NCBI GenBank assembly: GCA_030651135.1
Contig: JAUSCS010000006.1
Location: 68,851-132,850 of the forward strand
Direction: 5' to 3'
DNA: 64,000 bases
DNA from: Candidatus Woesearchaeota archaeon
GTDB taxonomy: Archaea; Nanobdellota; Nanobdellia; Woesearchaeales; JACPBO01
The position numbers and the translations under genes are program-made. This document shows positions 2,245-61,268 of the stretch, piece by piece (position 1 is the stretch's first letter; every line of letters begins with the position of its first letter). Below the pieces are notes generated by a model, which saw only the letters and a list, made by a program, of their open reading frames with translations, had not been told where the DNA came from and made no database searches.

Positions 2245-2511
2245 CTAAGCCATCAATCTATGCTCTATTGTCTTATTCACTTTATGCCCATTGCCAATTA
2301 TTGTACTGCTTATCTTGCCGTTGTTCCATGAATCATGGCCTGATCCCTTGAACTTCATCTTTATATGCACTTTTCTTCCGCAGCCGCAGATTAAAGTTTT
2401 ATAATGCAGATAACCTTTAAATTCAGAATCCCAGATTTTGTCTTTTAAGCTAGAGCCGCAGTACAGGCATGTGTCCTGCTGAGCTTCTGATCTTGCGATA
2501 TGATGCGGCAT
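2245..2511 (-). CDS. Small zinc-ribbon hypothetical protein
   Basis: CLYC...CGCG cysteine pairs in an 88-aa ORF. Confidence 0.6.
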   Translation of the reverse strand: MPHHIARSEAQQDTCLYCGSSLKDKIWDSEFKGYLHYKTLICGCGRKVHIKMKFKGSGHDSWNNGKISSTIIGNGHKVNKTIEHRLMA

Positions 2512-2568: not shown

Positions 2569-2823
2569 TTACTCTCTTATAAAATCATAAATCTCTTGTT
2601 GCTTTTCTGAATTCAGTGAAATATGAACTTCGCCCGTGGATTGCTTTGTTTTAATAAAACCTTTCTCGATCAGATCTTTTATAGCATCGTCAGTTTCTTT
2701 TGCACCTCTTAAATGTGTTGGAATGCACTTTTTGAGGTTAGTTAGCTCAGTATGCCTGCCGCCCCAAATGCCCAAGTTGACTAATTTTCTTAAGAATCGT
2801 TTCATTATGAAAATTTTGTCCAT
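2569..2823 (-). CDS. Small basic hypothetical protein, paralogue of 57214..57468
   Basis: 84 aa; aligns along its whole length with the 57.2-kb ORF (RKL..W..H T..NL.K...AI.L....K......SLN..K..EI). Confidence 0.7.
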   Translation of the reverse strand: MDKIFIMKRFLRKLVNLGIWGGRHTELTNLKKCIPTHLRGAKETDDAIKDLIEKGFIKTKQSTGEVHISLNSEKQQEIYDFIRE

Positions 2824-2868
2824 TTAAAAAATAAGGAGATAAAACATTTATAAAGTTTTGTTCTTTAT

Positions 2869-2902
2869 TTGAAACGTATATGTTCCAAAATAGAAACATT
2901 TA
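2869..2902 (+). promoter_or_regulatory. Inverted repeat followed by a BRE/TATA-like motif in a divergent promoter
   Basis: TTGAAAC-gtatat-GTTCCAA (2869-2888) overlaps AAAATAGAAACATTTA (2887-2902). The 16-mer is identical to 57529-57544. Confidence 0.55.
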
Positions 2903-2928
2903 AATATGAGCTCTTCTACCTAAGTATA

Positions 2929-3243
2929 ATGGAAGAAACAATATTCACAAAAGCAATTGGAAACACGCCTAAAATAAAGGTATTGGAATTTTTGATAGAA
3001 GGCAGAGAATTAGATTACTCCATTTCCGATATTGCAGAAGGTGCTGGCATAGGAAGAACCACCTTATTCAGAATATGGGACGACCTAATAAAATCAAATG
3101 TAATAAAACATACAAGATACATTGGAAATGCCAAGCTCTACAAATTAAACATTGCAAATCCTTTTGTAAAGAAATTAATTGATTTGTTTGACACATTAGT
3201 CATCGCGCCATTGAACAAAAAGAAAATCGAAGTGATGCATTAA
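2929..3243 (+). CDS. Winged-helix DNA-binding protein, paralogue of 57604..57927
   Basis: KVLEFLIEGRELDYSISDIAEGAGIGRTTLF HTH followed by the wing IGNAKLYKLN; ATG at 2929. Confidence 0.8.
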   Translation: MEETIFTKAIGNTPKIKVLEFLIEGRELDYSISDIAEGAGIGRTTLFRIWDDLIKSNVIKHTRYIGNAKLYKLNIANPFVKKLIDLFDTLVIAPLNKKKIEVMH

Positions 3244-7868: not shown

Positions 7869-10292
7869 ATCAATAACATTCTCAAAATCAATCTTAGAAT
7901 CCTTCTTCAATTCTTCATAAATCATTTCCTGAACTTTTGCCGTAGCAATTATATCTTTCTCAACCTTTTTGAAATCTTCTTTTGAAATCTTCCCTCTTAA
8001 GATCATCTTCTTAACCGGCTCTTTCAAGGAAATCTTCTTCTCGGATTTTGCCTGCCTTGCAGCTTCAACAGCATAACACACTAATTCGCCTATTTTTTCA
8101 GCATTTTCATCAATCAGTTTTTTATCGCATTCAGGCCACTCTGAAATGTGTATGCTTTTTGCTTTCTCTTTGTCCGCAAAATATGTCTGAAAGATTTCTT
8201 CTGTAATGAAAGGCATTATTGGCGCCATGAGTTTTAATATTGTCAATAATGACATGTATAACGTATACTTGGCAGATTCAACAGCATCTTTTGAATAAGT
8301 CCCTACATTATACAACCTGTCTTTTATAATTTCAAGATAATAGTCGCAGAAAACATGCCAGAAGAAGTTTTCTGTTTCAGCTTTTGTTTTTGAATATTCA
8401 TATTCATTAAATGATTCAGTGGCATTTTTAATGATCTTGTTCAATTTAGACAGCAGCCACCTGTCAATCATCTCCAATTTTATATTTTTGCCTTTTTCAT
8501 ATTTTTCCAGATGAATAAAGCAGAATTTTGATGCATTCCATAGTTTTATTGTGAATTTCTGGCCTGTAACCAAATCTTTCTCCTGGTAAGGCAGATCCTC
8601 TCCTAATTTAGAGCCAGCTGCCCAGAATCTAAGGCAGTCAGCGCCATACTTGTCAACCAAAGACTGCGGCTCAACAACATTTCCCTTGCTTTTTGACATC
8701 TTTTTGCCATGCGGATCCTGCGCATGCCCTGCAATCATGACATCTTTCCAGGGGTTTATTTTGTAATGCAATTGCGATTTAACAACAGTATTGAAAAGCC
8801 AGAATGTTATTATATCATGCGCCTGCGGCCTTAATGACATCGGATAAAGCCTTTTCTGTATTTTTTCAGGCATCAGCTCAATTGCGAGCCTTGGCGTCAG
8901 TGATGATGTTGCCCATGTATCCAAAACATCTTTTTCTGGAATAAATTCATCACAGCCGCATTTAGGGCATTTTTTTACAGGCGGATTGTCTTTCAGAGGA
9001 TCAACCGGCAATTGCTTCTCCTCAGCTAAAATTACTTCATTGCATTTCCTGCAGTACCATAATGGAAACGGAACTCCAAAGAACCTCTGCCTTGAAATAC
9101 ACCAGTCATACTTAAGGCCATGAACCCAGTTTTCATATCTTACTTTCATATATTCCGGGTGCCAATTAAGCGCATTTCCCCATTTTATCATCTCGTCCTT
9201 CAGGTCAAGATATTTGATAAACCATTGGTCTGTTGTCAGTATCTCAATATCTGTGCCGCATCTTTCATGAACATTAACCACGTGCCTTATAGGCTCTATT
9301 TTTTCAATCCTTTCTTCTTTTTTCAGGTCATCTGTAACAGCGCTCCTTGCCCGCTTTATAGCCATTCCTTTGTATTTTCCTGCTTTTTCATTTAATGTCC
9401 CGTCTTTATTTTCAATCTCAATAGCAGGGATTTTTTCTCTCTCAAGCCATACTACATCATCCATATCGCCAAAGGTGCAATGATAAACAGCTCCTGAGCC
9501 AAAATCCATTGCAACATCCCTGTTTGCTTTTATCGGAACCTTTCTGTTGTAGAATGGGATAATTGCTTCTGCTCCTATGAACTCCTTGTATCTTTCGTCA
9601 TCAGGGTGCACATGAACCATTACGCATGCCCCCATCAGCTCTGGCCTTGTTGTTGCTATTATTATCTGCTTTTTTATTGTCGTATCGAATTTCATGTATA
9701 TTAATTGAGAATCCTGTTCGCTGTCTTTCATTTCTACCTGGGCTATTGCCGTCTGGCATTCAGGGCACCAAAAGAACGGCGTCCTCTTTCTGTATTCTCT
9801 GCCTTTTTTGTATAGGTCTATAAAGCTTTTTTGAGATATTTTCTGGCAATGCTTGTCTATCGTAGTATAAAATATAGACCAGTCGCAGCTTATGCCTATT
9901 CTTTTCCAGTCTTGCAGATATGAAGGCCTAAGCTCCTTTTCTAATGTTTCAAGAACCAGATTTATGAATCCCTCCCTGCCTAAAGCAACATCCTTTACTT
10001 TCTTTTCTTGTTCTATTAGCCTTATTGTTGCCAGCCCGTTATCATCTGTTCCGAAAGGATAGAAAACATTCTTGCCGAGCATTCTATGGAATCTTACAAC
10101 AAAATCCTGCTGAGAATAGCTGAATGCATGCCCAAGATGCATTTTCCCGCTGACTGTTGGCGGCGGAGTGTCAATTGAATAGATCTCCCTCTTTTCATCA
10201 TTTGGATCAAACTTGTAAATTCCTTCCTTCTCCCAGTATTCATTCCATTTCTTTTCAGCTTCTTTGAAGCTGTAGTTCTGCGGTAGTTCCAT
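7863..10292 (-). CDS. valS: Valyl-tRNA synthetase (archaeal type)
   Basis: DTPPPTVSGKMHLGH, DWCISRQR, KMSKSKGN. Confidence 0.96.
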   Translation of the reverse strand: MELPQNYSFKEAEKKWNEYWEKEGIYKFDPNDEKREIYSIDTPPPTVSGKMHLGHAFSYSQQDFVVRFHRMLGKNVFYPFGTDDNGLATIRLIEQEKKVKDVALGREGFINLVLETLEKELRPSYLQDWKRIGISCDWSIFYTTIDKHCQKISQKSFIDLYKKGREYRKRTPFFWCPECQTAIAQVEMKDSEQDSQLIYMKFDTTIKKQIIIATTRPELMGACVMVHVHPDDERYKEFIGAEAIIPFYNRKVPIKANRDVAMDFGSGAVYHCTFGDMDDVVWLEREKIPAIEIENKDGTLNEKAGKYKGMAIKRARSAVTDDLKKEERIEKIEPIRHVVNVHERCGTDIEILTTDQWFIKYLDLKDEMIKWGNALNWHPEYMKVRYENWVHGLKYDWCISRQRFFGVPFPLWYCRKCNEVILAEEKQLPVDPLKDNPPVKKCPKCGCDEFIPEKDVLDTWATSSLTPRLAIELMPEKIQKRLYPMSLRPQAHDIITFWLFNTVVKSQLHYKINPWKDVMIAGHAQDPHGKKMSKSKGNVVEPQSLVDKYGADCLRFWAAGSKLGEDLPYQEKDLVTGQKFTIKLWNASKFCFIHLEKYEKGKNIKLEMIDRWLLSKLNKIIKNATESFNEYEYSKTKAETENFFWHVFCDYYLEIIKDRLYNVGTYSKDAVESAKYTLYMSLLTILKLMAPIMPFITEEIFQTYFADKEKAKSIHISEWPECDKKLIDENAEKIGELVCYAVEAARQAKSEKKISLKEPVKKMILRGKISKEDFKKVEKDIIATAKVQEMIYEELKKDSKIDFENVIDL

Positions 10293-56637: not shown

Positions 56638-56672
56638 TGTAAACGAAATCATAGAACTCTGTATTATTTAAT

Positions 56673-56805
56673 TTAACTAACCTTTAGACCTCTCTCAAGT
56701 TCTCATTAAAAATTAAAAGAAAAAAAGTTATCAAACCTTATTGCGCAGCTGCTACAGTTATGTCTGTCAAGCTTGTGCCGGTTACAGTTACTTCTGCTCC
56801 CTTCA
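56673..56805. repeat. Second copy of the S-layer gene 3' end plus downstream region (partner 57983-58125)
   Basis: 56738-56805 matches 58058-58125 at 67 of 68 nt. TCTCTCAAGTTCTCATTAAAAA is identical in both, and weaker homology extends out to TTAACT. Confidence 0.92.
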
Positions 56806-56899: not shown

Positions 56900-57133
56900 A
56901 TGGTAACCATGACTTTAGCAGTCCCGGATGAATTAAGGCATAAAATGGAAACGTTTCCAGAAATTAATTGGTCCGAAGTAGCTAGGCAAGCATTTAATCT
57001 GAAAATCAGTGATTTGGAGTTTTTAAGAAAATTTAAATCCGAAAGCAAGTTTACGGAAGAAGGTGCTCTAAAGCTAGGTGCAGAAGTGAGTAGAAACCTC
57101 GCTAAGAGATTCGCCCAAAAAAGAGGCAATTAA
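56900..57133 (+). CDS. RHH/VapB-like antitoxin (orphan)
   Basis: MTLAVPDELRHKMETFPEINWSEVARQAF; GGAGG RBS. Confidence 0.75.
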   Translation: MVTMTLAVPDELRHKMETFPEINWSEVARQAFNLKISDLEFLRKFKSESKFTEEGALKLGAEVSRNLAKRFAQKRGN

Positions 57134-57213: not shown

Positions 57214-57468
57214 CTAATCAATTAACTCTTCAATCTCCCTTATTTTCTTAGGATTCAGGCTGACTTCCAACCCATAATGAGTGGGTTTGGATAAAAGTAT
57301 CTGCTCACTAAGAAGCTCTTCTATTGCCTTTTTAACCTCTCTGGAAACCCTTAATTCATTAGATAACCCTTTTGGAAGGTTATTGATGTTTGTATGCTTA
57401 TGAAGCCACATTCTTTTTCTGTATAATTTCCTAACAATGAACTTTTTTATAACCTGCCTTTCATCCAT
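57214..57468 (-). CDS. Small basic hypothetical protein, paralogue of 2569..2823
   Basis: 84 aa, full-length similarity to the 2.6-kb ORF. Confidence 0.72.
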   Translation of the reverse strand: MDERQVIKKFIVRKLYRKRMWLHKHTNINNLPKGLSNELRVSREVKKAIEELLSEQILLSKPTHYGLEVSLNPKKIREIEELID

Positions 57469-57603
57469 GCAAATCTATGAAAAGGAGCACTCATATTTAT
57501 AGTTTTCGTTTTGTAAACCATGGTTATTAAAATAGAAACATTTATATACTTTTCTCATTTACTTCGCGTTAAGGTGTTCAACTTGAACGAAAAACAAACA
57601 GAA

Positions 57604-57927
57604 ATGGTGGAAGAGAAAAGCGTATTTGTAGAATACTTTGGAGATTACCCTTTGATTAGGGTGTTGGATTTCTTAATTTTAGGCAGGGACATGGATTACA
57701 GTATGACGGATATATGCGACAATTCATGTGTCGGTTGGACAGCCTTTTCCGATATATGGCCGCGTTTGGTTGAAAAAGAGATAGTAATCTTCACGAGAAA
57801 AATAGGAAATGCAAAATTGTTCAGATTGAATGTAAAAAATCCCTGGGTAAAAGAACTTATAAGGATGGACCACGTTATTACAAAATTGGAAACGGAAAAA
57901 TTTATTTCTACAGAAGTTACAGTTTAG
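57604..57927 (+). CDS. Winged-helix protein, paralogue of 2929..3243
   Basis: IRVLDFLILGRDMDYSMTDI...IGNAKLFRLN; ATG at 57604. Confidence 0.8.
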   Translation: MVEEKSVFVEYFGDYPLIRVLDFLILGRDMDYSMTDICDNSCVGWTAFSDIWPRLVEKEIVIFTRKIGNAKLFRLNVKNPWVKELIRMDHVITKLETEKFISTEVTV

Positions 57928-58057
57928 CCATATAACAAATTTTGTTTAATAATCGCAGTGCGCACCACCAAAAGCATTTCAGTTAACTGATCTTTAGTCT
58001 TCTCTCAAGTTCTCATTAAAAATAAAAGAAAAAAAAGAAAAAAAGGTAAAAACCTTT

Positions 58058-60463
58058 TTATTGCGCAGCTGCTACAGTTATGTCTGTCAAGCTCGTGCCG
58101 GTTACAGTTACTTCTGCTCCCTTCATGCTTGAAGCATACTTGCTCCACTGCGAAGCTACTCTGCTGGCTCTTCTTGTGTCTTCAGCATTGTATCCAGCAA
58201 CTAGCATTGCAACTTTGCCTGCATTTTCATACAGCTTTACCATTGCTTTGCCTTCTGTGAAATCTTTGCCGCATGGGCTTGGACTTCCCATTATTGCTGC
58301 TGCTGCTGTGTTAGCACATGGTCCGCCTATAATGATGGCGTTCTGAGCTTTTATGTCAGCAACTTCGCTGTCTAGCTTGGCAGTTCCAACATTCCAAACA
58401 TTGACTGTTTGTGTTGTAGTTCCGCCGCTTGTGGTTGTTGTTGCTGCAGTTGGTGCAACGAATACAGTATATGCTGTTGCTGCGGAAGGATATAACAACT
58501 CCAAAATATCAGTGTCTGTGTTGTACTTCACATATGTACCATATTGGGACATACCCCTCTGGTCATATGTGCTTCCAATTGTGCCCATCGCTAAACCATC
58601 TCCAGTAGGCGTAGCAACCTGCATATCATACTTGCTGTCTGCAATTTGGTTCAACGTAATGTTGATGTCGTTACCAGCATCACCTAATTTCTGGTTAGAA
58701 GTGCCAGCTGCAGTCAAGTTGTAGTAGTCTCCATCATTGTACTGTGTCTCTTGCGTAATGGTAATGTTGCAACTAACAACACCACTTACCCCTGTCAAGT
58801 TAGCTGGGAACGCTATCTTTTCCCCGCCTTTAGCATAAACGTAGTTCTGCAAAGCTTTTCCACCAGAAGATGTTGTGACGTTTATACCACTATTTGTGGC
58901 ATTTACCATAACATTGTAGGTATACCCATCTAAGCTGAATGTTGACGAGTTTGTCGAATCCAAGCTTAATGTCAGGGTGTCACTGCCAGATGCTATGTCT
59001 TTTATCTTCACTTCAGGCGAACTTGAACCTGCATTTATCCTTTTTACTTGCATAATGTGCGAATAACCGCCTTGGTCGATTATGAAGTAATCGTTTTCTA
59101 CCATTGCAATTTGTCCACTAGCAAAAGATAAATTTGTCCACAATTTATAGCTGTCTACTCCAAGATCACAGTTCGCAGTTCCACTGGTTGCTGTTCCTTT
59201 TAAGAACTTAGTGGAGTATTTTTGGCCTGCTTTGTTTGTGAACTCTATCGCTGCAGTATCTTCGCCAGTTGGATAGATCTTTATCACATCTCTGCTTGCG
59301 TCATCAAGTGCGGGTGTTGTCCCAGTAAAAGACCACTTGAATGTGCCGAATACAGGGTCTGTAAACGATTCACCGCTTTTCAGATATCTGAATTCTGGGT
59401 CCATATTGTATGGCTCTACTGCTATTGCAAGCTTCGTTATCGTAGAACCACTAACGCTTGCCACCACCGTTGTTCCATCTATGTCTGAAGATGCCATTCT
59501 TGCAGCTTCTCCATTTCTCAGTATTAACTTGTCTGAGCCGATGAACAATCTTACAGCGCCGCTTGTTACTGGTGTTGTATAAGCAAATATGTCTCTTACA
59601 TACACTCTTATTCCGCCTAATACAACTACTTCGCCAGCTGTTACTGAAGCAGATTCTCCATTAACTTTGATTGTTGCAGTTGAAGTTGTTGTTCCTGTGT
59701 TTACACCTGTTACTTCAACCGAAACATCTGTTCCTGCAACTGTTACAGTTATAGCTTCTCCTGCAGAGAATGTTTGGTCTGTTCCGCCGCCGAATAATAC
59801 AAGCCCAGTTGTGCTGTTTACAACTAATTCAGCATCAGTTCCTGCAAATGTATATTCTTTGCCGAATAATGTTATCAGCTTGTTGTTTAGCTTTGTTGTT
59901 GTAACTGCTGAAGGAAACTCTATTTGCGCGACATACTTTGCCCCGCTTGGCAAATTAAGATACACTTGAGGATCGTTTGATAATCCTGTTGGTGTTCCAA
60001 ATGTAATTTTCGCTGTCGAGTTAAGTATGTTTATCTTTTGGTTATAGTCCCAAGCTGTGCCATCTTCATCTGTAATAGATCCGCTAGCCAATACCTTTGT
60101 CAAATCAGATGATGTCAGTGCTGTTTTAACAACACTTAATGTCTGGCCCAGATATAGCTTCTGTCCTGCTGTCTCGACTTTTACACCGCCTTCCAAAACT
60201 GTTGTTGTTGCTCCTGATGTTGTTGTTGTAATAGATGCTGCTTGCAATGCTGTTGCAACGTCAATAGCACCTATTATGTCTTCTGAAGACGCAGCTTTGC
60301 CAACTACAAGTAAGGCATTAAACTTTCCATCAGTCCCAATAAATAATGGGCTCGGGTACTGACTCAAGTCAGCTGCTGCTACTGCACCTAGGATTGTAGC
60401 GCCTAACATTGCTGCGCCGGTTCCTATTGCAGCGATCCTCTTTATTGCTTTTTTTACGTTCAT
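58058..60463 (-). CDS. S-layer protein (Methanococcus-type N/C domains)
   Basis: Signal KKAIKRIAAIGTGAAMLGAT, VVGKAASSEDIIGAIDVA, IIIGGPCANTAA, MLVAGYNAEDTRRA; Thr/Ser/Gly-rich; GGAGGTG RBS. Confidence 0.9.
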   Translation of the reverse strand: MNVKKAIKRIAAIGTGAAMLGATILGAVAAADLSQYPSPLFIGTDGKFNALLVVGKAASSEDIIGAIDVATALQAASITTTTSGATTTVLEGGVKVETAGQKLYLGQTLSVVKTALTSSDLTKVLASGSITDEDGTAWDYNQKINILNSTAKITFGTPTGLSNDPQVYLNLPSGAKYVAQIEFPSAVTTTKLNNKLITLFGKEYTFAGTDAELVVNSTTGLVLFGGGTDQTFSAGEAITVTVAGTDVSVEVTGVNTGTTTSTATIKVNGESASVTAGEVVVLGGIRVYVRDIFAYTTPVTSGAVRLFIGSDKLILRNGEAARMASSDIDGTTVVASVSGSTITKLAIAVEPYNMDPEFRYLKSGESFTDPVFGTFKWSFTGTTPALDDASRDVIKIYPTGEDTAAIEFTNKAGQKYSTKFLKGTATSGTANCDLGVDSYKLWTNLSFASGQIAMVENDYFIIDQGGYSHIMQVKRINAGSSSPEVKIKDIASGSDTLTLSLDSTNSSTFSLDGYTYNVMVNATNSGINVTTSSGGKALQNYVYAKGGEKIAFPANLTGVSGVVSCNITITQETQYNDGDYYNLTAAGTSNQKLGDAGNDINITLNQIADSKYDMQVATPTGDGLAMGTIGSTYDQRGMSQYGTYVKYNTDTDILELLYPSAATAYTVFVAPTAATTTTSGGTTTQTVNVWNVGTAKLDSEVADIKAQNAIIIGGPCANTAAAAIMGSPSPCGKDFTEGKAMVKLYENAGKVAMLVAGYNAEDTRRASRVASQWSKYASSMKGAEVTVTGTSLTDITVAAAQ

Positions 60464-60610
60464 GCTTAAACACCTCCGTGTTTTACTTAGCATTATTCCA
60501 AAAAGGGAACATCGTTCTCTTTTTTCACAAACTTAGATGGCTGTAGGAAGCTTGCTCTTCTGCAAACTATTCCTATTTCTAAGTTCTTATCATCTACAGT
60601 AAGGAACTAG

Positions 60611-60626: not shown

Positions 60627-60808
60627 AAGCAAAGGCACACTATAATCGTTAAACTTAGCGATAAAGCGTATCTCGTTAAAATTTTTAGTTTCTGGATAGT
60701 TGTTACCTACAAATAGAGAATCAAGAAAACATCCAAAAAACAGCATTTTCAAGCCCATTTTAAGCCACATAGCGCACCAATATTTTGTATATCAGTATAC
60801 AAAAAATA

Positions 60809-60966
60809 TGCGGAGTGCAGGACTTTCAGTTGCTCTGCAACATTCGAACCTGCGTAGGGACTGACCCAATAGGTGTCTTAATATCATTGGAAGCTGCTTC
60901 CTCAACACACCTAAGCTTGGATGATCTTTCGATCTCTATCCCGTTTGGCCACTCCGGCAACTCCGC
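60809..60966 (-). tRNA. tRNA-Leu(UAG) with three introns (30/31: 60917-60935; 37/38: 60875-60909; 59/60: 60823-60842)
   Basis: GCGGAGT/ACTCCGC-A73 and variable arm GGG/CCC. BHB helices GGAT/ATCC, CTTA/TAAG and TTCG/TGAA each have 3-nt bulges. The spliced 84-nt product has arm ATAGG-CTTAGGA-CCTAT. Confidence 0.93.
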
Positions 60967-61131: not shown

Positions 61132-61248
61132 TCAAAAACCACCATTCTCAGCTATATCTGATAATGAATATTCCAATCCTCTGCCCTCTATTAATAAGTC
61201 TAAAACTCTTATTGCGGGTGAATCTTCAAATGCTTCTCTAAATGCCAT
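61132..61248 (-). pseudogene. Truncated third copy of the winged-helix regulator family (2929/57604 type)
   Basis: MAFREAFEDSPAIRVLDLLIEGRGLEYSLSDIAENGGF*; stops before the recognition helix and wing. Confidence 0.78.
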
Positions 61249-61268
61249 TTTCCCCAATGAGCCCTTAT

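Follow-up and report, generated by a model that had tools for sequence, protein, structure and literature searches.

Two loci in a 64,000-nt stretch of Candidatus Woesearchaeota archaeon DNA (contig JAUSCS010000006.1 of assembly GCA_030651135.1, positions 68,851 to 132,850 of the forward strand; hereafter, the window) each carry a gene for a small winged-helix protein and, pointing away from it, a gene whose product is a wHTH (winged helix-turn-helix) protein. Taking structure models, gene neighborhoods, and promoter sequences together, we find that each locus is probably a co-regulated and autoregulated pair of winged-helix regulators, and not a toxin-antitoxin (TA) or mobile cassette. The pair belongs to Woese- and Pacearchaeota, which are uncultured, have tiny genomes, and are organisms for which almost nothing is known of gene regulation. 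An earlier sequence-only reading of this DNA had described a divergent two-gene module with a conserved promoter and different operators at the two loci, and had proposed that it was mobile and possibly TA-like; the description largely held up, and the latter two proposals did not.

Two divergent gene pairs in the window

The two intact pairs and the remnant of a third consist of the following genes:

2569-2823, minus strand: small winged-helix protein, type A (open reading frame (ORF), 84 aa, isoelectric point (pI) 9.4)
2929-3243, plus strand: wHTH protein, type A (ORF, 104 aa, recognition helix GRTTLFRIW)
57214-57468, minus strand: small winged-helix protein, type B (ORF, 84 aa, pI 9.8)
57604-57927, plus strand: wHTH protein, type B (107 aa from ATG 57604, recognition helix GWTAFSDIW)
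61132-61257, minus strand: truncated third wHTH paralogue, type C (41 aa, small partner missing)

The divergent layout that had been read from the sequence, with an 84-aa gene on the minus strand and a 104- or 107-aa wHTH gene on the plus strand, was confirmed at the level of ORFs for both loci. Both proteins are also homologous between the loci, as had been claimed, with 33% identity between small A and small B (E = 3e-14) and 45% between wHTH A and wHTH B (E = 2e-29) in pairwise comparisons, and the recognition helices indeed differ (IGRTTLFRIW in A and VGWTAFSDIW in B). All proteins of the two loci are basic except wHTH B, which is acidic (pI 5.1). The divergent intergenic region measures 105 to 135 nt in the window and 90 to 130 nt in most of 101 pairs.

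The module had been counted twice in the window. Two loci are indeed intact, but the count of only two has to be amended by the truncated type C wHTH gene, which adjoins the genes for L37e and LSm. At the syntenic L37e/LSm site of a relative with ~88% nucleotide identity (L006), the type C pair is intact and consists of a gene for a 101-aa wHTH protein (8372-8677, minus strand) and a divergent gene for a 92-aa small protein (8810-9088, plus strand).

Conservation, pairing, and types of the gene pair

Homologues of both families are numerous. We found 830 homologues of wHTH A (77 to 95% identical among the best 120 listed), 421 of wHTH B (74 to 92% identical among the best listed), and 219 of small A (70 to 90% identical among the best 120 listed), and nearly all of those with a source name carry a Woesearchaeota or Nanoarchaeota label, often with adjacent locus tags. 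Each wHTH type amounts to hundreds of clusters at 90% identity, while a profile of the small family, searched against 1.84 billion representatives, collects 313 clusters (50% identity). Among contigs from one genome per species, 226 stretches encode the wHTH protein.

For the pairing count, we used wHTH genes whose upstream sequence extended over at least 450 nt, and a divergent small gene at most 400 nt away was accepted as the partner. Such a partner was present at 68 of 81 wHTH genes in the species genomes and at 32 of 40 B-type genes in metagenome loci. The two families co-occur, that is, in 80 to 84% of loci, which supports the earlier notion of a two-gene unit; the rare co-occurrence that would speak against it was not seen. 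The association extends to remote relatives, since all four distant representatives of the small family that were checked (on DPANN-like contigs and ~30 to 36% identical to small A) have a wHTH-family neighbor. A third conserved neighbor was not found, with the next commonest gene occurring in at most 13 of ~140 loci. In one of the four distant pairs (L143), the genes stand in tandem and are co-directional with the small gene first (564-836 and 954-1289, both on the plus strand). At several wHTH A genes that have no small partner (L030, L033, L053, L067, and L068), the upstream genes are often small and look TA-like by eye (HicA/HicB-, MazF/AbrB-, and RelE-like).

At least four types of the pair can be told apart (A, A2, B, and C), of which the window holds A, B, and the decayed C, and A and A2 occur together in one assembly (L017 and L077). 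For type B, the clusters of the two families match one to one in 33 pairs, and 64 A/A2-type wHTH genes pair with two small-protein clusters, without any mixing between A and B. Because the major clusters of both families correspond in this manner, the pair was duplicated as a unit, giving rise to orthogonal types. The two families also co-diverge, with distance matrices that correlate at r = 0.93, a value reached in 0 of 500 permutations. Both proteins evolve slower than the neighboring enzymes: in the same genome pairs, identity was 79 to 85% for the wHTH protein and 80 to 84% for the small protein, compared to 72% for DXR, 75% for IspG, and 64% for MetAP. Overall, these comparisons show the pair to be an old conserved unit in Woese- and Pacearchaeota.

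Promoters and the shared 16-mer

Core promoter elements could be placed for all four genes, where BRE denotes the TFB recognition element:

2847-2854, minus strand: TATA box of small A, TTTATAAA, self-complementary, 3' edge separated by 23 nt from the A in ATG 2823
2887-2902, plus strand: 16-mer of locus A, comprising 3 nt, the 9-nt BRE (ATAGAAACA), and the first 4 nt of the wHTH A TATA box
2899-2906, plus strand: TATA box of wHTH A, TTTAAATA, 3' edge 22 nt before ATG 2929
57495-57502, minus strand: TATA box of small B, TATAAATA (minus strand), conserved as CTCATATTTATA in 41 B-type loci
57529-57544, plus strand: 16-mer of locus B, comprising the BRE plus the TATA start of wHTH B
57541-57548, plus strand: TATA box of wHTH B, TTTATATA

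The TATA boxes of the two divergent promoters are separated by 52 bp at locus A and by 46 bp at locus B. At both genes of locus A, the distance from the TATA box (3' edge) to the start codon is 22 to 24 nt. As the reported spacing between the TATA 3' edge and the transcription start site is 23 ± 2 nt (PMC2699501), both locus A mRNAs are predicted to be leaderless. The small B mRNA would be nearly so, and that of wHTH B is ambiguous, with its relatives predicted to be leaderless.

The 16-mer AAAATAGAAACATTTA has one exact occurrence at each locus on the plus strand and nowhere else in the window. When up to two mismatches were allowed, it was matched 5 times compared to an expected 0.45, and 0 of 100 shuffles reached 5. 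Because the spacing between TATA box and transcription start places the promoter there, the 16-mer can be resolved into 3 nt, the BRE, and the first bases of the wHTH promoter's TATA box, in agreement with its earlier assignment to a conserved promoter. Types A, A2, B, and C all keep the element. Similar elements (ATAGAAAG/C-N-TTTA) precede other genes of the window (33088, 36987, and 38950) at the expected BRE/TATA positions. For this reason, we largely rejected the 16-mer as a dedicated regulator site and regard it mainly as a near-consensus core promoter.

The start of wHTH B deserves a comment. Its relatives begin at MEEKS, 23 to 30 nt past the 16-mer, and the window copy is ~33 nt longer at the 5' side (57545-57603). 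This extra stretch is in frame, and alternative in-frame starts are possible at GTG 57574, which lies at the predicted transcription start, or at TTG 57583. Judged from the sequence, the start is ambiguous, and the window copy either carries a 5' leader or is extended by 10 aa at its N terminus.

In another distant pair (L142, 2440-2500), the whole intergenic region spans only 61 nt and holds a single central TATTTAAAT element, which may serve the two genes jointly as a bidirectional TATA box.

Operator candidates and recognition helices

Between the divergent promoters, each locus carries its own inverted repeat:

2860-2897: four alternating pentamer half-sites in an 11-bp phase (GTTCT 2860, GAAAC 2871, GTTCC 2882, and GAAAC 2893)
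2871-2886: central inverted repeat GAAAC-N6-GTTCC, A operator candidate, centre 2 bp from the midpoint between the TATA boxes
57516-57525: palindrome AACCATGGTT, B operator candidate, centre 1 bp from the midpoint between the TATA boxes

The different palindromes that had been reported for the two loci are present as described, and the one at locus A, TTGAAAC-N6-GTTCCAA at 2869-2888, is one mismatch away from a perfect palindrome. The outer two half-sites of the locus A array overlap the two BREs, with the fourth (GTTCT 2860) reaching the BRE of small A. The right three half-sites are conserved in 55 A-type loci as GGAAC-N6-GTTCC-N6-GRAAC, the last of them lying inside the wHTH BRE. Consensus sites and recognition helices compare as follows between the types:

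Type A (55 loci): tGGAAC-N6-GTTCC-AAAATA-GRAAC-ATTTAWAWA, i.e., tGGAAC-N6-GTTCC-AAAATAGAAAC-ATTTAWAWA, with helix GRTTLFRIW
Type A2: GTTAC-N6-GTAAT-N6-ATTAC ahead of the same BRE/TATA, with helix NRVTLFRMW
Type B (41 loci): RAAC-N4-GTTM, with helix GWTAFSEIW

In the 55 A-type and 41 B-type loci, we found a conserved inverted repeat that lies at the wHTH gene's own BRE/TATA or beside it, as would be expected of an autoregulated archaeal factor. The A-type repeat is also highly specific in its location: among 49 matches to GRAAC-N6-GTTYC in 768 kb of locus DNA, 48 stand immediately upstream of a wHTH gene of type A, and the central inverted repeat of locus A is the sole match in the window. It is present also at loci without the small gene and, because it is kept upstream of the wHTH gene even there, we assign the repeat to the wHTH gene. 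In the protein alignment, the wing (TRxIGNAKLxxLN) is invariant across the wHTH types and the recognition helix is type-specific. Operator candidates and recognition helix thus change together between types: within one type, the candidate sites are conserved over dozens of species, and from type to type they vary in concert with the helix, which lends weight to the earlier proposal of paralogue-specific operators.

Predicted folds and family membership

Structure prediction of the 84-aa protein, suggested earlier as a check, yielded a confident winged helix. The AlphaFold2 model of small A (predicted local distance difference test (pLDDT) score, 96.3) shows the order H1-b-H2-H3-wing (beta-hairpin)-C-terminal H4. 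Its best Foldseek matches are SSV1 F-93, STIV F93, pNOB8 AspA, Sso10a-2, TubR, and MarR-like proteins (template modeling (TM) score, ~0.6 to 0.69; E ~1e-3); the top-ranking PDB entries are without exception winged-helix dimers that bind DNA, and comparison with a viral structure library gave equally generic matches. The likeness is closest for F-93, F93, and AspA (TM score, 0.60 to 0.68), which share a similar length and the C-terminal helix. However, the Foldseek E value of ~1e-3 comes with an identity of 12 to 19%, small A stays below threshold for the F-93_WHD family (PF22194; 13.4 bits compared to a cut-off of 28), and small B has no match to it. Among 80 diverse members of the small family, none matched F-93_WHD at E ≤ 0.01. 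The gene pair also differs from these systems in being chromosomal, without a ParA/ParB partner and without viral context.

The wHTH A model (pLDDT, 87.3) has the order H0-H1-H2-H3-S1-S2-H4, with helices at residues 5-10, 14-24, 32-39, 43-55, and 78-97 and strands at 59-65 and 68-73. In Foldseek, Sso10a-2 ranked at the top, followed by ArsR/SmtB proteins (HlyU, CzrA, AntR, NolR, SmtB, and ZitR) and MarR proteins, with E values of 2e-4 to 2e-3 and TM scores of 0.54 to 0.60 for HlyU, CzrA, AntR, NolR, and SmtB. The model has the winged helix with flanking N- and C-terminal dimerization helices that characterizes the ArsR/SmtB fold, and by our own reading the motif xFxxxGxxPxIKVLEFLI resembles ArsR/SmtB helices 1 and 2. 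By analogy with these small dimeric autoregulators, the wHTH protein would bind the inverted repeat in its own promoter. Nevertheless, ArsR/SmtB membership finds no support in sequence profiles. Neither Pfam nor NCBIfam places the wHTH proteins in ArsR/SmtB at the curated cut-off, and HTH_5 (PF01022) and HTH_20 (PF12840) are absent among their Pfam matches even at E ≤ 1; in hmmscan, wHTH A gave only sub-threshold matches to HTH_7, HTH_Crp_2, HTH_IclR, and TetR_N, and wHTH B gave none. Likewise, metal- or thiol-sensing residues are not evident, with no conserved Cys/His cluster visible in the alignment, for which no systematic residue mapping was made, and the wHTH gene has an archaeal promoter of the BRE/TATA type.

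In Pfam, NCBIfam, PHROGs, and PADLOC, no family is matched at cut-off by any of the four proteins or by the 80 diverse small-family members, and sequence profile searches of the PDB with both families gave nothing below E = 0.06. On the basis of the models, both proteins can be described as winged-helix DNA-binding folds of unannotated families. A homology of the small and wHTH families to each other was also considered and rejected, given a profile-profile probability of 0.4% and no detectable sequence relation.

One fusion protein was observed among the top 150 representatives of the small family. On a bacterial-looking contig with a GC content of 68% (L146), a 484-aa protein encoded at 1125-2579 carries the small-family domain at its C terminus (residues ~386-461), and the gene adjoins a divergent SWIM/SNF2-like helicase gene.

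Proposed mechanism and its weighing

For the mechanism, we infer that a wHTH dimer reads the central inverted repeat through its type-specific recognition helix, while additional wHTH copies may sit on the outer half-sites, which keep the phase and overlap the BREs. Such binding would set the output of both promoters together, such that the wHTH gene is autoregulated and the small gene is co-regulated, with repression through occlusion of TFB and TBP at the BREs as the likeliest sign. The small protein would act together with the wHTH protein, through a presumed heteromeric contact, either as a cofactor or as another subunit that binds DNA. Its role as a partner rather than a pure antagonist is suggested by the tandem gene order in L143, the tight co-divergence of the two families, and their similar evolutionary rates.

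A number of observations weigh against this interpretation. Between 16 and 20% of wHTH genes have no small partner; hence there is no strict need for the small protein. The correlation between the distance matrices of the two families is confounded by shared phylogeny. Specific transcription factors are not usually more conserved than metabolic enzymes, and such conservation could mean a more general role in chromatin or in machinery. In small A, the first half of helix 3 is acidic (ETDDAIKDL), which is atypical for a recognition helix. Concerning a putative regulon, the window holds no convincing GRAAC-N6-GTTYC or AAACCATGGTT site outside the own promoters and the 768 kb of loci gave one stray GRAAC-N6-GTTYC site only. 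The sequencing runs that hold the locus are DNA runs, with no RNA runs found. Last, the sign of regulation could also be positive because activators such as GvpE also bind directly upstream of both BREs: the GvpE upstream activating sequence lies between divergent promoters in this position (PMC2241852). These haloarchaeal PA/PD gas-vesicle promoters resemble the loci described here in that oppositely oriented archaeal promoters stand tens of base pairs apart with a regulator site between them. They differ in that GvpE is an activator of another protein type and is not encoded as a divergent pair at that site, whereas here the regulator genes flank the site.

A bolder variant of the proposed pair of regulators would see the types as orthogonal, self-contained two-subunit circuits specific to Nanoarchaeota/DPANN, in which the wHTH dimer and the small protein would assemble on phased half-sites across both BREs of their own leaderless promoters and act by tight co-repression or as a toggle, with the three or four pairs serving as master switches of the symbiont lifestyle, for example, between attached and free states, or of division. 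A master-switch role would explain the stronger conservation compared to core enzymes, and it leans on there being few other regulators in genomes of ~0.7 Mb; we regard this variant as doubtful.

Alternative explanations

Could both proteins instead be nucleoid-associated proteins of the Lrs14/Sso10a kind, i.e., abundant dimeric proteins with little sequence preference that shape global expression, with the intergenic region being merely a strong promoter? For both proteins, Sso10a-2 ranks first or close to first among the structural matches, and the helix and strand order of the wHTH A model, including its long C-terminal helix, is that of Lrs14, Sso10a (Sul10a), and the N-terminal domain of TrmBL2 (PMC11841832), in which the long helix forms an antiparallel coiled-coil dimer. 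Both proteins are furthermore small (Lrs14/Sso10a proteins likewise having ~100 aa), all but wHTH B are basic, several paralogues occur per genome as for Lrs14 (four to nine; PMC11841832), both evolve slower than enzymes, and both promoters are near-consensus and predicted to be leaderless. Yet the resemblance does not reach the sequence, as a profile search of PDB chains at E ≤ 10 recovered neither Lrs14 nor Sso10a, and the lineages differ as well (Sulfolobales compared to Nanoarchaeota/DPANN). The wHTH gene is mostly coupled to a second winged-helix gene, and wHTH B is acidic. Lrs14 proteins are described as binding DNA largely without sequence specificity (PMC11841832), whereas type-specific recognition helices beside an invariant wing, together with type-specific inverted repeats at a fixed place in the own promoters, are unexpected for a non-specific binder, and we consider a chromatin role of this kind unlikely. 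The intergenic region also brings to mind a bistable toggle, in which mutually antagonistic repressors compete for overlapping operators. Phage CI and Cro are small DNA-binding proteins encoded divergently around an operator region, and the loci in the window similarly place two different small DNA-binding proteins back-to-back, with promoters 46 to 52 bp apart, a multi-half-site array that spans both BREs, and duplication into orthogonal types with distinct operator candidates. The folds are winged helices, however, and not the lambda-type helix-turn-helix, and the pair is chromosomal, slow-evolving, and present in several orthogonal copies. Its tandem, co-directional order in at least one lineage (L143) argues for co-expression, the central repeat persists without the small gene, and no second distinct operator set tracking the small protein was identified in the loci compared, all of which makes a CI/Cro-like toggle quite improbable.

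The two proposals of the sequence-only reading that did not stand concern mobility and a TA function. As a mobile cassette, the two genes would insert as a unit with target duplication, as might have occurred at locus B inside the 3' end of an S-layer-like gene. Locus B, along with a 77-aa ORF, is indeed bracketed by a direct repeat of ~140 nt, such that the S-layer-like gene has its live 3' end in the right copy and the left copy is an orphan:

56666-56805: direct repeat, left copy, an orphan that repeats the final ~22 codons of the S-layer-like gene and the region downstream
57976-58125: direct repeat, right copy, the S-layer-like gene's functional 3' end with its terminator region
58058-60493, minus strand: S-layer-like gene (811 aa, PF05124 S_layer_C)

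The copies are 99% identical in the coding part and 85% in the non-coding part; the same arrangement, more decayed and with a shorter left copy, exists in L006, and the neighbors of the pair vary among genomes. This repeat is the sole hint of mobility, and it could be the relic of one local rearrangement. The bracketed segment holds no recombinase or nuclease, no recombinase was found among conserved neighbors of the pair, no flanking repeats were found at locus A, and the S-layer neighbor is restricted to the lineage of the window. No relatives of the pair were found in 2.9 million viral contigs (IMG/VR), and the co-divergence and the evolution slower than that of housekeeping enzymes fit long vertical descent. 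We therefore hold a mobile cassette to be very improbable and attribute the direct repeat to a single old insertion or rearrangement that this lineage underwent rather than to general mobility. A link between the B pair and the S-layer gene was rejected as well because their adjacency is limited to the window and its close relative L006. For a TA module, the small basic protein would be the toxin and the wHTH protein the DNA-binding antitoxin and autorepressor. In favor of this, the unit comprises two genes for small proteins and has a palindrome in its promoter, its genomic context varies, and wHTH copies without a partner often lie beside TA-like genes. The small protein, however, is confidently modelled as a winged helix without catalytic or membrane features, so that both partners have winged-helix folds, and it has no toxin match in PADLOC, PHROGs, or Pfam. 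Defence models are matched weakly and by the wHTH proteins only, namely the wHTH-containing PDC-M05A and Csa3 models of PADLOC (best E = 9e-06). Type II TA modules are bicistronic operons with a toxin of known fold or family, and the layout here is divergent, with one tandem case only. TA modules turn over rapidly, and both partners here show the opposite in being far more conserved than neighboring housekeeping genes; viral contigs again hold no copy. A TA function is, accordingly, scarcely credible.

Relation to known regulators and significance

Returning to the pair of winged-helix regulators that we favor, autoregulation as such is already known, an archaeal repressor that controls its own gene having been described (Bell & Jackson 2000, as cited in PMC11841832). 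What appears to be new, on comparative grounds, is that winged-helix autoregulators are mostly paired and have multiplied into orthogonal types in DPANN archaea, and a description of this pair was not found in the literature searched. The previously described repressor is reportedly Lrs14, acting at its own BRE/TATA region.

The two unannotated families form a conserved unit whose likely DNA targets and promoters can be read from comparative sequence, and regulation in DPANN archaea hence comes within reach of in vitro tests that need no cultivated organism. The orthogonal types, in which helix and operator candidates change in a matched fashion, offer a natural series in which to study the evolution of winged-helix specificity. 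If this finding should be wrong, the pair would be one more set of small chromatin-like proteins.

Further features of the window

Some neighboring features were noted in passing. Directly downstream of small A lies an 88-aa Cys-rich ORF (CxxC...CGCG; 2245-2511, minus strand), which has no family match and is not kept beside the pair in other genomes. The 77-aa ORF inside the segment bracketed by the direct repeat (MVTMTLAVPDELRHKMETFPEINWSEVARQAF...; 56900-57133, plus strand) likewise has no family match, and L006 does not have this ORF and carries an HPr-like gene in its place. A probable class II tRNA gene with inserts is located at ~60790-60965 on the minus strand; it was not called by ARAGORN and has no Rfam match even at E ≤ 1, and it shows an acceptor stem of GCGGAGT...ACTCCGC and a T-arm of GCAGG-TTCGAAT-(20-nt insert)-CCTGC.

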